DNA of 64,000 nucleotides from Deinococcales bacterium (GTDB taxonomy: Bacteria > Deinococcota > Deinococci > Deinococcales > JAAFIG01): contig JANNVX010000088.1 in assembly GCA_031414595.1 (NCBI GenBank), positions 96,001 through 160,000 on the forward strand, in the 5' to 3' direction. Below the pieces are notes generated by a model that saw only the letters and a program-made list of their open reading frames with translations, was not told the DNA's origin and ran no database searches. Of the stretch, positions 1-64,000 are shown piece after piece. Within the stretch, counting starts at the first letter, position 1, and each line of letters begins with the position of its first letter. The position numbers and the translations under genes were made by a program.

Positions 1-183
1 GATATTCCATTCGCAGCCACCTTAGCTGATAAATGGATTGATGATTCTGGATTTTTATTAATTCCACAAGAGCTTGAAGTCGTTGTCCTTAACCCAAGAC
101 TTGGTATCGAAATACAAAGCCGTCATATTCGAGTAGTATTTCAGAATACAGTTTACAATCAATCAAAAGTAAGTCATTTGTAA
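1..183 (+). CDS. 3' end of a hypothetical protein (partial, starts before window)
   Basis: Frame 1 open from base 1 to TAA at 181-183 (DIPFAATLADKW...SKVSHL*); AT-rich. Confidence 0.4.
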   Translation, partial: DIPFAATLADKWIDDSGFLLIPQELEVVVLNPRLGIEIQSRHIRVVFQNTVYNQSKVSHL

Positions 184-237
184 GACGCGTGGTATCGAAA
201 ATATGGTGTACACTTGTAACAGGTAAGGAGGTATTTT

Positions 238-591
238 GTGGGTCAAGATATAAAACTACAACAGGCATTAGCGCAACTATGGGCAATAGCTGACGATTAT
301 GATTCACGTGGACTTTTGTCTGCCCCTGATTGCTTTCCGACCATTGGCGCATTTGCCGATGATGCCCCTGATATACATTTTGCTCTACTGAATGGTCTGT
401 TGGATTCTTCTTTATCAGACAAAACAAACAATACCTTTGAATACGTTGCGTTATTTAGCAGTGCAAAAGCCTTACAGTCATCCATCCCTGATGTCAGTCA
501 TCAGCCATTTTCTTATTCGGAAAATATGACCCGAAAGTGGAATTCCAAACAATTTAGCTTATCCTATTCCAATGACACTTGGGCAAATTAG
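238..591 (+). CDS. hypothetical protein
   Basis: 117-aa ORF preceded by AAGGAGG Shine-Dalgarno. Confidence 0.55.
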   Translation: MGQDIKLQQALAQLWAIADDYDSRGLLSAPDCFPTIGAFADDAPDIHFALLNGLLDSSLSDKTNNTFEYVALFSSAKALQSSIPDVSHQPFSYSENMTRKWNSKQFSLSYSNDTWAN

Positions 592-652
592 TCATTAGAC
601 GCTTATAAAGCATCTATTTCTTTCTTCAACTAATTGTCTTAAACTACTCCCC

Positions 653-1444
653 ATGCCTACGCAGTCTATTCGTTTTGACAATGGTCCTAAGCTCTATCCG
701 TTCAAAACCGATCTTGAATTTGCTCTGAACTCTCGAGTGGTGGTCAATTCGCGGCGTGGCTTAGAAGTCGCAACTGTGCGAGACACGGCTCGAGGCAATT
801 CTGAACATGTTGGCGGCGAAATTTTGCGCCAAGCTAACTTAGAGGACATCCAGCGCTGGCAGAAACTCGAGTCTGATGCCAATGACCTCAAATGGTTTTT
901 ACGCGCCAAGGTGCGTGAGTACCGAATGCCAATCAAAGTTGTGGCGCTCGAGTTTACTTTGGATGGCTCTACCCTGACCGTATCGTACTCGAGTGAAGAA
1001 AAACAAGAATTGCGCCATTTGATTCAGGACTTAAATGCTAAAACTTCGGCTCATATTCATTTTCATCCCGTTGGTGCAAGAGACCAAGCACGGATTTTGG
1101 GGGTTTTGGGGGTCTGCGGGCGCGAAAACTGCTCGAGTCATCATTTACAAGAATTCACACCAGTCACGATTCGCATGTCTCGAGACCAACAACTGCCACT
1201 TAATCCAGAAAAAATCTCGGGTCCGTGTGGGCGTTTACTGTGCTGTTTACAGTACGAACACGAAATGTACATTGATTTACTCAAAGGCTTACCGCGCAAA
1301 GGCGCAAAAGTATGCAGCACCGAAGACGAAAGTATGTGCGGTAAAGTCATGAAAATTAACCCACTAAAACAAACGGTTGAAGTGAAATCCGACGAAGGCG
1401 CTTGGTTTGAAATTGCCAAAGAGAACCTAAAAGCCGTGCGGTAA
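653..1444 (+). CDS. PSP1-domain / RicT (YaaT)-like Fe-S regulatory protein
   Basis: GVCGRENCS and ISGPCGRLLCCLQYE motifs; TAAACT-N7-ATG leaderless start. Confidence 0.88.
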   Translation: MPTQSIRFDNGPKLYPFKTDLEFALNSRVVVNSRRGLEVATVRDTARGNSEHVGGEILRQANLEDIQRWQKLESDANDLKWFLRAKVREYRMPIKVVALEFTLDGSTLTVSYSSEEKQELRHLIQDLNAKTSAHIHFHPVGARDQARILGVLGVCGRENCSSHHLQEFTPVTIRMSRDQQLPLNPEKISGPCGRLLCCLQYEHEMYIDLLKGLPRKGAKVCSTEDESMCGKVMKINPLKQTVEVKSDEGAWFEIAKENLKAVR

Positions 1445-1473
1445 TCAAATCACTGCTTTGGTGGCTGTACCAA

Positions 1474-2046
1474 TCACTGCTTTGGGTTGCAATACTCGAG
1501 CCAACCGTTTTTACCCAGCACCCCATTGCTCGAGATGACTAAGCTGTAAGACGCATTTGGTGCTTTGACTGTCGCGTTGCCAATATACATATTAAAAACT
1601 CCAAATTGTCGGTTTGCGGTGATTGGCTTCCCCGTTTTTTGGGCTTGGCTGATGGTCTCAAAAAAGAACTTGGCAAAATCTTTGCTGTTTTGTTCAGTGA
1701 TGCCAAGACAAGCCCCCGCCATGTATGCCATGAGTCCGCCCGAAGCATTGGCAAATTCGGCTAAGTCTTTGGGGGCAGCGTTGTAAGAAACACCAATACT
1801 ATTGGCAATGCCCACATCCTTAAAACCCACTAAGGAAATCCCAAACGGAATGCTATTTTTCTTATTACCGATGTACAAAACACTGTTTTTGTAGGCGGCT
1901 TTTGCACCATTGATGTTCATGGTTTGGGCTGCGCTCATGGCTGTAATCATGCCTGATTTTGTCCATTCGGCTCGTAATGAACGCGCATAGAGTTTCTCGG
2001 CAAACACCAAACTCGAGAGCAATACAATCATAAGAAGATATTTCAT
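1474..2046 (-). CDS. secreted hypothetical protein
   Basis: Signal peptide MKYLLMIVLLSSLVFA; 4-bp overlap with upstream gene. Confidence 0.7.
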   Translation of the reverse strand: MKYLLMIVLLSSLVFAEKLYARSLRAEWTKSGMITAMSAAQTMNINGAKAAYKNSVLYIGNKKNSIPFGISLVGFKDVGIANSIGVSYNAAPKDLAEFANASGGLMAYMAGACLGITEQNSKDFAKFFFETISQAQKTGKPITANRQFGVFNMYIGNATVKAPNASYSLVISSNGVLGKNGWLEYCNPKQ

Positions 2047-61775: not shown

Positions 61776-61809
61776 AAAAAAAAGAAGCCCAATAATTGGG
61801 CTTCTTTTT
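61776..61809 (-). terminator. intrinsic (bidirectional) terminator after pgk
   Basis: A-tract-GAAGCCC-aataatt-GGGCTTC-T-tract. Confidence 0.85.
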
Positions 61810-61816
61810 AGTATTT

Positions 61817-62980
61817 TTACTCGAGTGCTGCCACACCGGGCAAGATTTTCCCCTCGAGCAATTCAAGGCTTGCGCCGCCACCCGTGGAGATATGGTCTAT
61901 TTTATTGGCATAGCCCGTTTCGTTAATTGCCGCTACACTGTCGCCGCCACCAACCACCGTAAAGGCATTCTGGATTTTAGCCAAGGCTGCTGCTACCGCA
62001 TTTGTACCACTGGCGAAAGCTGGAAATTCAAAGACCCCCATTGGTCCGTTCCAAAAAACCGTTTGGGCATTCTCTAGCGCCGCAGCAAAGACTTTTTGGC
62101 TTTCAGGTCCAATATCCATGCCTTCCCAATCGTCGGGTATGGCATTGGTGGCAAAAATCTGCGTGTTTGCGTCTGCCGCAAATTTATCGCCTGCCAAGGT
62201 ATCGGACGGCAACACAATTTTAGAGCCGAACTGCTCGAGTAAGCGCTTGGCAGTCTCCAAAAAATCATCTTCATGGATGCTCTTGCCGATTTTGCCACCC
62301 ATGGCTTTGACAAAGGTGTACGCCATGCCCCCACCAATCAGCATTTTATCCACTTTGGGCAGCAGGTTCTCGATGACTTTGAGTTTATCCGAAACCTTTG
62401 CTCCGCCAATAATCACCACATAAGGTGAAACAGGATGCTCGAGCAGTTTGGTTAATTGCACCATTTCTTTCTCGAGCAGTAAACCTGCCGCATGAGGAAG
62501 CAACCCAGCCACACCAGAAACACTTGAATGCGCCCGATGAGCGCTTCCAAAAGCATCTAGTACAAAGGCATCACCAAGCGCAGCTAGTGCTGAATTTAGA
62601 GTCGCATCATTTTTTTCTTCGCCAGTTTCAAAACGCACATTCTCGAGTAGTGCCACCTGTCCAGCTTGTAAATCCGACAAGGCTTGGACGGTCTCAGGGC
62701 TGGCAGGAGTTGACCGAACATACAAGACACTCTTGCCTAATGCCTTCTCGAGAACTGGAACAACAGGTGCAAGTCGGTATTTTTCATCCACACCTTTAGG
62801 ACGACCAAAATGCGACATTAAAATAACGGCTGCGCCACGCTCAAGCAGCCAATTGATGGTCTCGAGACTGGCTGTAATTCGCGTGTCATCTGATACCACA
62901 CCGTTATCAACTGGTACATTGTAATCTACACGCACCAAAACACGTTTACCAGCCACTTCTAAAGAATTTAGGGTTTTCAT
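61817..62980 (-). CDS. pgk: phosphoglycerate kinase
   Basis: [30 protein letters not shown]. Confidence 0.98.
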
Positions 62981-62990
62981 AAATAGCTCC

Positions 62991-63105
62991 TAGTTTTTAG
63001 CTGTTAGCTTCTAGTTCATTAGGTTTTTGAAGAAGTCTTAAAGATACAGTTTGTATAATCCAAAAACCTTTCGAGCTAACAGCTAGAAACTAGAAGCTAA
63101 CAGCT
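62991..63105. repeat. inverted heptamer tandem repeat (TAGCTGT/TAGCTTC type) between gap and pgk
   Basis: TAGTTTT TAGCTGT TAGCTTC TAGTTCA ... AGCTAAC AGCTAGA AACTAGA AGCTAAC. Confidence 0.75.
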
Positions 63106-63107
63106 TA

Positions 63108-64000
63108 TTAAAGGCTTTTTGCAATGTGTTTTACAAGGTCTACAACGCGGTTGCTGTAACCCCATTCGTTATCGTACCAACTGACAACCTTGACAAAATT
63201 ACCACCCAAGACAAGGGTTTCTAAAGCGCTGAAAATACTCGAGTTTGGATTGCCTTTTAAGTCAATGCTGACCAGTGGTTCTTCGGTGTACTCGAGAATG
63301 CCTTTCATTGCGCCTTCGGCGGCGGCTTTCATGGCGGCGTTAATTTCGGCAACGGTCACGGATTTATTCAGTAACGCCGTAAAATCCACGACGCTGACGG
63401 TACTGACTGGAACGCGGAAGGCAATACCAGTAAACTTACCTTGAAGCTCTGGAATCACCAAGCCAACCGCTTTGGCTGCACCTGTGCCGCTTGGTACAAT
63501 GTTCATGGCAGCCGCACGGTTATCGCGTGGGTCGCCGCGAGGACCATCTACCAAGCTCTGGCTGGCGGTGTAGGCATGGACGGTGGTCAGGATGCCTCGA
63601 TCAATGCCAAATAAATCGTTTAGCACTTTAGCAACAGGTGCAAGTCCGTTGGTGGTGCAACTGGCATTAGAAATCACATGATGGTTAGCTGGGTCATAAG
63701 TATTTTCATTAACCCCCATCACAAAGGTTGGCGTGGCATCTTTAGCGGGCGCAGAGATAATCACTTTTTTTGCCCCACCTGCAATGTGAGCGCTGGCAGC
63801 CAATGAAGTCGTAAAACGCCCTGTAGATTCAATTACAATATCCGCGCCGTATTGTCCCCAAGGCAGCTTACTTGGGTCTTTTTCGGCAAAAACACGGGTT
63901 TTATGACCATCTACAATGATGTTTTCGGTGTCACTCGAGATAACCCCGGGGTAACGACCATAATTGCTATCGTATTTTAGCAAATGCGCCAGTTCGGCAT
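63108..64000 (-). CDS. gap: glyceraldehyde-3-phosphate dehydrogenase (partial, 5' end beyond window)
   Basis: [24 protein letters not shown]. Confidence 0.97.

Follow-up and report, generated by a model that had tools for sequence, protein, structure and literature searches.

The question raised by the stretch of DNA considered here, 64,000 nucleotides from a Deinococcales bacterium (contig JANNVX010000088.1, positions 96,001 to 160,000; hereafter the window), is why a single hexamer, CTCGAG, recurs in it so often, and whether it behaves as a highly iterated palindrome (HIP) of the kind described in cyanobacteria. CTCGAG is the commonest hexamer of the window (45.4% G+C), with 327 copies corresponding to a mean density of 5.1 per kb, or one site per 196 bp. 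A hexamer-specific pressure acting at the DNA level makes these sites by substitution, both within genes and outside them, and it changes where another site lies close by. All counts come from this one 64-kb window, the HIP character being established at window level only, and the genes are 54 open reading frames (ORFs) chosen by the analysis itself, most of them with a clear family assignment.

Base composition predicts 12.7 copies of CTCGAG in the window (observed-to-expected ratio, O/E, of 25.8), or one per 5.0 kb. This agrees with the one per 4-5 kb estimated in an earlier, sequence-only reading, whose hand counts for 653-1444 (7 sites), 13468-15161 (17) and 39270-39340 (4) were also found to be exact. 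In 100 dinucleotide-preserving shuffles the mean count was 7.62 ± 2.70 and the largest 16, with none of the 100 reaching 327 (O/E 43). The enrichment is present in all 4-kb bins, at 16-37-fold over local composition, and the sites are evenly spread along genes with no position bias seen. In a comparison set of 69 unrelated loci, each 10 kb or longer, no 6-bp palindrome exceeds an O/E of 8.9. The specificity extends to the complete hexamer. The remaining 15 NTCGAN hexamers occur in 1-21 copies each, the other palindromic ones (ATCGAT, GTCGAC and TTCGAA) only once each, and TCGA outside CTCGAG is under-represented (130 vs 233 expected). An enrichment shared by other NTCGAN hexamers, which the sequence-only reading had named as an outcome that would overturn its proposal, is therefore not what is found. 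The next-ranked hexamers, heptamers and octamers are almost all overlaps of CTCGAG, occurring at the frequency predicted by their sub-words, so that the unit is no longer than six bases.

Such an abundance might reflect translation rather than DNA, as a codon, codon-pair or dipeptide preference for writing Leu-Glu as CTC-GAG, and 64% of the sites located in coding sequences (CDS) do lie in codon phase 0, where the motif reads Leu-Glu. The CDS were compared with a synonymous shuffle in which codons are permuted within each gene (500 runs), preserving both the protein and the codon usage of the gene. This control is conservative because the CTC and GAG codons derived from the motif stay in the pool. 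A total of 292 CDS sites is observed against 31.7 ± 5.2 after shuffling (maximum 48 in the 500 runs), a 9-fold excess. Each phase is 8-19-fold over the shuffle, with 187 sites against a mean of 23.4 in phase 0, 46 against 5.2 in phase 1 (9-fold) and 59 against 3.1 in phase 2 (19-fold). CTC-GAG encodes 187 of the 303 Leu-Glu dipeptides, whereas away from Leu-Glu both are minority codons (CTC in 140 of 1789 Leu codons, GAG in 184 of 931 for Glu). The strongest outlier of the 2702 codon pairs whose expectation is 2 or more is CTC-GAG (O/E 11.4), and the five that follow it (TCT-CGA, TCG-AGT, TCG-AGC, TTC-TCG and ACT-CGA) are pieces of the motif in the other two phases. The codon-pair bias is therefore a consequence of CTCGAG, and a dicodon control would amount to circular reasoning. 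In the 5947 bp not covered by ORFs of 100 aa or more, 34 sites are found, compared to 0.92 expected from the composition of that DNA (about 37-fold); 9 of the 34 lie inside three small toxin-antitoxin-like gene pairs and the remaining 25 in about 4.5 kb. The density of CTCGAG in non-coding DNA is the same as in coding DNA (5.0 per kb in the latter). A translational origin is already refuted by these results and retains virtually no probability. The sequence-only reading had described a highly iterated palindrome present in all three frames and in intergenic DNA, independent of codon pairs, and had accepted that it should be abandoned if codon usage accounted for the excess; the description is borne out and the excess survives.

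The pressure prevails over the constraints on proteins, to the point that amino-acid changes have been fixed. No dipeptide is more over-represented in the 54 proteins than Leu-Glu (303 vs 132.8 expected, 2.3-fold), the reverse dipeptide Glu-Leu being at expectation (137). In native genes the motif fills 64% of the Leu-Glu positions (178 of 278), and of the positions that the protein would permit in phases 1 and 2 it fills 40 of 90 and 50 of 124, respectively. The ICDH encoded in the window was aligned with 80 homologues, the best of 589 relatives retrieved from 185,579 species representatives. One of its five sites (Ile-Ser-Arg 144-146) matches the majority residue everywhere. Deviating residues accompany sites at 307 (Leu for the usual Ile) and at 320-321 (Asp-Ser for Gly-Val), and a Leu-Glu site falls on the variable positions 455-456. 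GluRS and PGK were compared by eye with their closest solved orthologues, and the residues were found to be identical at 7 of 19 sites and different at 12. Nine Leu-Glu sites of these two proteins display exactly one residue differing from the orthologue, and in eight of the nine Leu is common to both while Glu is replaced in the orthologue (A, R, R, R, A, P, R, K). A site thus appears to consist, as a rule, of a conserved Leu followed by a tolerant position turned into Glu; proof of this direction requires an outgroup, but the 2.3-fold excess of Leu-Glu indicates the same direction.

The sites also influence each other. Gaps between successive sites are near exponential overall (mean 194 bp; coefficient of variation 1.04, or 0.91 without the low-GC island described below), with a scarcity of gaps of 25 bp or less (4.3% vs 12.1% expected). 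This short-range exclusion was evaluated against a null in which the 268 occupied positions of 47 native genes are drawn from the 492 protein-compatible ones with unchanged phase counts. Only 2 adjacent gaps are 1-17 nt long, compared to 16.3 ± 3.1, none of 2000 null draws being as low, and all pairs at 6-29 nt number 13 compared to about 34 expected. Of 41 neighbouring compatible positions lying 6-17 nt apart, both are occupied in 2 cases, one in 24 and none in 15. Beyond about 30 nt, no clear preferred spacing or helical phasing was seen. Intergenic DNA has a relatively large share of the pairs spaced by 18-30 bp, 7 of 23 being outside the listed ORFs. A hairpin or terminator reading of paired intergenic sites was considered and rejected, as only a trivial 6-bp stem can form and T-runs are absent.

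Such interference would not be expected if potential sites were converted independently of one another. The exclusion fits non-overlapping footprints of a protein reading the site and, equally, selection against close inverted repeats, since the copies of a palindrome are inverted repeats of one another. The former possibility raises the rival that the CTCGAG sites are where a non-methylating protein binds or acts, the array being kept by selection; candidates would be a protein that structures the nucleoid, a Chi-like but palindromic regulator of a recombination nuclease, or a repair nicking enzyme. An exclusion of about 30 bp is expected from footprints that do not overlap, and the even density along genes and across the window is in line with such an array. 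In the available part of their work, Xu et al. argue for selection and for a role of HIP1 in chromosome structure (PMC5861425). Inverted-repeat avoidance can yield the same exclusion, and no candidate protein was identified. Furthermore, Chi-type sites are oriented, non-palindromic and far less enriched. The array of a non-methylating protein is accordingly regarded as quite improbable.

CTCGAG is a bare hexamer arising by point substitution, and not a mobile repeat. The flanks carry less than 0.05 bit of information per position (relative entropy, positions -8 to -1 and +6 to +13), and in a self-BLAST of the window repeats are confined to the inserted low-GC block, so that the sites are isolated words and not parts of a dispersed element. 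For lack of any conserved sequence past the core, a longer motif or a dispersed element resembling a repetitive extragenic palindrome or a miniature inverted-repeat transposable element was rejected. The related explanation that XhoI sites were introduced by cloning, assembly or editing finds nothing in its favour except that CTCGAG is often used for cloning. The uninformative flanks and the restriction of internal repeats to the inserted block speak against both a mobile origin and an artefact. Conserved residues are respected as well (in ICDH, Ile-Ser-Arg 144-146 and Glu 308 are kept), and the preference for phase 0 and the mutual avoidance of sites do not match insertion or random overwriting. 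These origins are already refuted, with a negligible residual probability. As a separate observation, the 8-bp palindrome CCTCGAGG (NCTCGAGN contexts) occurs once compared to about 8.8 predicted from the margins (of the 327 sites, 48 have a preceding C and 60 a following G), the three other palindromic extensions of CTCGAG being near expectation.

The remainder of the palindrome repertoire follows the opposite trend. Of the 64 possible 6-bp palindromes, 34 display an O/E below 0.1 and 46 an O/E below 0.25 (median 0.08), compared to just 3.5% of non-palindromic hexamers with an O/E below 0.1. Tetramers are affected too: GGCC occurs 2 times vs 170 expected, GATC 33 vs 246, CCGG 41 vs 170 and CTAG 72 vs 246. 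Broad palindrome avoidance is usually ascribed to the action of many restriction systems, and the present figures suggest a very heavy restriction pressure in the lineage, to which CTCGAG is the single, extreme and protected exception.

The explanation that we favour, while placing it somewhat short of an even chance, is a HIP-type palindrome maintained by a CTCGAG-reading methyltransferase encoded elsewhere in the genome together with a bias of repair or recombination. In the cyanobacteria, a methyltransferase that recognises the HIP or its core is present in all HIP-bearing genomes, in the part of the survey at hand (PMC4390886), and because every HIP studied in these organisms has one, a methyltransferase is taken as the likely agent here. 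By this analogy, a protein encoded outside the window would read the complete hexamer; it would be a DNA methyltransferase specific for CTCGAG, acting alone or within a restriction-modification system. Repair or recombination, including recombination with incoming kin DNA, would favour the sites so marked, which would build up and be retained as a dense self-DNA label. Points in favour, besides the cyanobacterial analogy, are the specificity for the complete hexamer, the independence from translation, the origin of sites by substitution, the distortion of proteins, the short-range exclusion as a sign that each site is sensed individually, the contrast with the other, avoided palindromes and the graded distribution within the phylum. 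The methyltransferase, the bias and the self-mark function are thus all putative. A more particular proposal, possible but doubtful in our estimation, is that of an independent, non-cyanobacterial HIP system consisting of a selected array of individually occupied, probably methylated protein-binding sites at least about 30 bp apart, which would serve as a self-DNA tag for recombination or transformation under heavy restriction.

Several results weigh against the methyltransferase-based explanation. No methyltransferase, restriction enzyme or Vsr-like gene was found among the 54 ORFs of at least 100 aa and the small ORFs of the window, and a search of the window for defence and restriction-modification genes returned only Uma2/PDC-S03, WYL and HTH matches. 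The T-containing variants of the site are not depleted relative to a first-order Markov expectation (CTTGAG/CTCAAG 35 vs 31.3, ratio 1.12; TTCGAG/CTCGAA 25 vs 27.8, ratio 0.90). Since variants derived from T:G mismatches are at expectation, a simple Vsr-type repair ratchet fits poorly. The absence of a C-to-T decay signature would be compatible with N6-adenine or N4-cytosine methylation, and the known XhoI, PaeR7I and TaqI methylases are adenine-modifying. The ratchet described by Elhai depends on G-meC and, as far as the consulted passages go, levels off at around 1 site per kb (PMC4390886). CTCGAG has no GC dinucleotide and its flanks do not supply one (G at -1 in 25% and C at +6 in 26% of sites), and its density is 5.1 per kb; that model is therefore inapplicable as written. 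Avoidance of deletion-prone close inverted repeats could explain the ~30-bp exclusion as well as a protein footprint would. Finally, the low-GC island is still 14-fold enriched and the O/E of genes does not track their GC content.

The same data bear on a simpler proposal, in which the sites would be a functionless, neutral by-product of Vsr-type very-short-patch repair operating beside a cytosine methyltransferase. There is a precedent in E. coli, where Dcm/Vsr raises CCWGG and lowers its T-containing neighbours, and over-representation of a HIP need not imply function according to Elhai, in the portion of the article available (PMC4390886). The T-containing neighbours of CTCGAG are nevertheless at expectation (1.12 and 0.90), the 26-43-fold excess accompanied by fixed amino-acid changes is far above the known effect of Vsr, and independent conversion of near-sites fails to predict the short-range exclusion. 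Such a by-product is considered highly improbable.

An alternative that would require no methylation at all is a drive resembling that of uptake sequences, in which competence or later recombination prefers CTCGAG-containing DNA and transformation by kin spreads the sites. It is consistent with a hyperabundant word located mostly in coding DNA, in the cheapest frame and at tolerant protein positions, a pattern that Findlay and Redfield reportedly described in 2009 for the uptake signal sequence (USS) of Haemophilus. Thermus and Deinococcus are naturally competent, and the presence in the window of a gene encoding a PilT-type type IV pilus ATPase suggests that the present lineage is probably competent as well. 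HIP1 itself was recently linked to competence genes and to transformation efficiency, according to the part of the report at hand (PMC13756078) and to a 2024 bioRxiv preprint (10.1101/2024.09.10.611283). However, a 6-bp palindrome at 5.1 per kb with uninformative flanks is unlike the asymmetric uptake words. The effect of HIP1 on transformation is moreover said, in that preprint, to be methylation-dependent, so that it overlaps the methyltransferase-based explanation. DNA uptake by Thermus is reported to be sequence-unspecific. An uptake drive is therefore thought unlikely.

The distribution of the trait among relatives was approached through individual loci of the window. The best ICDH locus, located on a Meiothermus-labelled metagenome-assembled genome (MAG) contig (L001), shares 71% identity with no synteny, and no synteny with the window was found in any of the best 80 of 589 ICDH loci. 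The O/E of CTCGAG across these 80 unrelated loci has a median of 0.59 and a maximum of 6.2. The best solved-structure matches of GluRS (1j09, 1g59/1gln) and PGK (1v6s, 2ie8) are entries that we take to be Thermus proteins, the organism not being given by the structure search. The four best plasmid matches of the WYL regulator are from Deinococcus (39-55% identity), and the types of DinB, Uma2 and RecX are also consistent with Deinococcota, although a comparison of RecX with the ESM Atlas was taxonomically uninformative. An affiliation to this phylum is thus likely from the encoded proteins, with a G+C content unusually low for it. A search of plasmid DNA with the window gave one match, to nspC (65%), and a search of phage DNA gave none.

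Within the phylum, CTCGAG was counted in CDS and submitted to the same codon shuffle, the comparators being single stretches of 18-50 kb, four of them from plasmids. No CDS site is found in 40 kb of a Deinococcus aetherius plasmid (1 site in the whole 40 kb; shuffle 16.2), and 40 kb of a D. wulumuqiensis plasmid contains 1 (shuffle 10.6), the sole copy in that stretch. A 40-kb stretch of a Thermus thermophilus plasmid contains 25 (shuffle 39.5, about 0.6-fold). Positions 1-50000 of the Allomeiothermus silvanus plasmid pMESIL01 (50 kb) contain 51 (shuffle 25.9 ± 4.1), CTCGAG being the top palindrome of that plasmid with an O/E of 3.7. On the Meiothermus-labelled MAG contig the count is 30 (shuffle 9.7 ± 2.6); CTC-GAG writes 29 of its 62 Leu-Glu dipeptides, and its non-coding sites number 4 vs 0.45 expected. 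The window, with 292 sites in CDS against 31.7 (9-fold), lies at the end of this series. The trait is not phylum-wide: it is near-absent in the two Deinococcus plasmids, 2-3-fold in the two Meiothermus-group sequences and extreme here. Such a lineage-specific, graded distribution fits a gene that is present, absent or variable.

The features of the window that illustrate the distribution of the sites are collected in Table 1.

Table 1. Coordinates within the window of CTCGAG-rich and CTCGAG-poor features.
Feature	Coordinates	Strand	Remarks
CTCGAG array, 327 sites	1..64000		every 4-kb bin enriched over local composition
Densest stretch, 19 sites in 1.75 kb	13403..15155		two tandem PhzF-family genes and end of SnoaL-like gene; gene site densities 9.9 and 10.1 per kb
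ispD and ispE, 16 sites (8 each)	54784..56141		12.1 and 9.6 per kb; phases 0, 1 and 2
Cluster of 4 sites, 18-24 bp apart	39272..39340		two sites in PilT/M42-peptidase spacer, two in 3' end of peptidase ORF; folds only as trivial 6-bp self-complementary stem
Three sites in 184-bp intergenic spacer	2636..2755		coordinates are site positions
Three sites in 264-bp intergenic spacer	18192..18259		coordinates are site positions
Low-GC inserted block, reduced site density	44685..54717		1.5 per kb outside internal repeats
DUF4241 gene, low-GC	16035..16793	+	0 sites
DUF3800 gene (Pfam), low-GC	35508..36251	+	0 sites

The low-GC block (31-40% G+C, window 44582-54821) is bordered on both sides by direct-repeat copies, 103 bp long and 88% identical, of the start of ispD (5' end). 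The sequence-only reading had tied the high density to native genes. This holds for the raw density, which is lower in the block than in the rest of the window (1.5 vs 5.5 sites per kb), but after correction for local composition the block is still 13.8-fold enriched, compared to 26.0-fold elsewhere. In its ORFs the sites occupy 9 of 22, 6 of 12 and 9 of 31 protein-compatible positions. The block contains five large ORFs (522, 481, 762, 370 and 1115 aa) with no family except WD40-like repeats, plus one match to a papain-like toxin domain lying below the cut-off, and no integrase was seen in it. A 300-bp internal repeat is present at 49893-50192 and 53371-53670 (89.7%), with a partial third copy at 44696-44817, and the ORFs at 44900 and 46465 are paralogous in their N-terminal parts. 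All 7 CTCGAG sites are intact in two diverged internal duplicates, too few to be counted as evidence. The DUF4241 and DUF3800 genes together would be expected to contain 0.22 sites by composition and about 5.7 at the enrichment of the window, and are probably recent acquisitions. Across genes, the O/E of CTCGAG is uncorrelated with G+C (rho 0.12, p 0.37). A general rule that foreign DNA lacks the sites is therefore only partly true, given this and the 14-fold enrichment of the island, which is either a long resident or originates from a donor sharing the trait. An accumulation of sites with residence time is only weakly supported.

Several other loci of the window deserve mention. Three tandem small-gene pairs on the minus strand (19584-21105), in which toxin-like ORFs (92, 98 and 94 aa) accompany antitoxin-like ones (70, 70 and 67 aa), resemble a triplicated toxin-antitoxin module and have no PADLOC match; the three old toxin paralogues share 1 of 4 site positions. 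At 57406-59577 on the minus strand, 19 CTCGAG sites are found in a gene encoding a 723-aa protein similar to family-B DNA polymerases, with an RNase H-like/exonuclease domain, whose scores against the Pol II models fall well short of the cut-offs. Two TPR-repeat proteins of 1120 and 960 aa (4061-7423 and 32122-35004) share a near-identical DNA segment (5363-5400 and 32935-32972). No RNA gene was found in the window.

CTCGAG can be compared to a number of known systems. Like HIP1 (GCGATCGC) and the alternate HIPs (GGCGCC, GCsGC, rCCGGy, GGGATCCC and TCGATCGA), it is a palindrome and the top over-represented word of its length, by tens-fold, and its density exceeds the roughly 1 per kb that characterises a HIP. 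As in cyanobacteria, to the extent covered by the HIP passages at hand, the sites occur in all frames and in intergenic DNA, spread by substitution and are found in a genome that otherwise avoids palindromes. According to the accessible parts of the two main sources, one alternate HIP is also a hexamer (GGCGCC in Calothrix PCC 7103; PMC4390886), and HIP1 sites are conserved by selection (PMC5861425). A periodicity of 10-90 kb is also reported for HIP1. The differences are the Deinococcota-like host, the word itself and the absence of a GC dinucleotide in it. CTCGAG contains 67% GC, below the at least 75% that Elhai gives, as a descriptive figure, for the HIPs replacing HIP1, and reaches about 5100 sites per Mb compared to 300-2700 for HIP1 and 1000-2000 for the alternates, in the sections consulted (PMC4390886). 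The doubling of a dipeptide and the ~30-bp mutual exclusion were measured here for CTCGAG and do not appear in those HIP passages.

The resemblance to the DNA uptake sequences (DUS) of Neisseria and to the USS of Pasteurellaceae consists of a genome-wide excess of a short word, mostly genic and at tolerant positions, with a possible drive bringing no benefit to the cell. DUS and USS are non-palindromic words of 9-12 nt occurring about once per kb, USS with AT-rich flanks, whereas CTCGAG is a 6-bp palindrome at 5 per kb that lacks both an asymmetric core of that size and any flanking signal. As in the Dcm/Vsr effect on enterobacterial CCWGG, the site of a proposed methyltransferase would be made commoner by biased repair, but the effect in E. 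coli is modest compared to the 26-43-fold observed here, and depletion of T-containing neighbours is absent. The density of about one palindrome per 200-250 bp is also that of the GATC sites of Dam in gamma-proteobacteria, which serve as marks for MutH and SeqA, methylation being established for Dam and putative for CTCGAG. As GATC is strongly avoided here (33 vs 246), the role of a Dam-type mark would be vacant. GATC is near chance in E. coli, whereas CTCGAG had to be enriched about 26-fold or more in order to attain such a density. Chi is likewise a short over-represented word, and marks self DNA for a recombination nuclease; it is asymmetric, oriented with replication and far less enriched, and a palindrome cannot carry orientation. 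The full-text literature searched, of which subscription journals, supplements and genome announcements formed no part, contained no description of CTCGAG over-representation or of a non-cyanobacterial HIP. The present case differs from the described HIPs in phylum, sequence, density, absence of a GC dinucleotide and measured proteome distortion and mutual exclusion.

Three decades after HIP1 became known there is still no agreement on its function, and the examples so far all belong to a single phylum. Another case of independent origin, here with a measurable cost to proteins, would establish the generality of the phenomenon. The graded relatives, one of which is cultured (the 2-fold enriched A. 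silvanus plasmid), allow a comparative search for a co-varying methyltransferase, nuclease or binding protein. If the proposed reading is true, phylogenetic profiling could find the responsible gene and provide a first mechanistic handle on HIP-type sequences. A word present at 5 per kb and enriched about 40-fold is also a strong marker for binning, for the recognition of foreign DNA in this lineage and for the design of transformation constructs.

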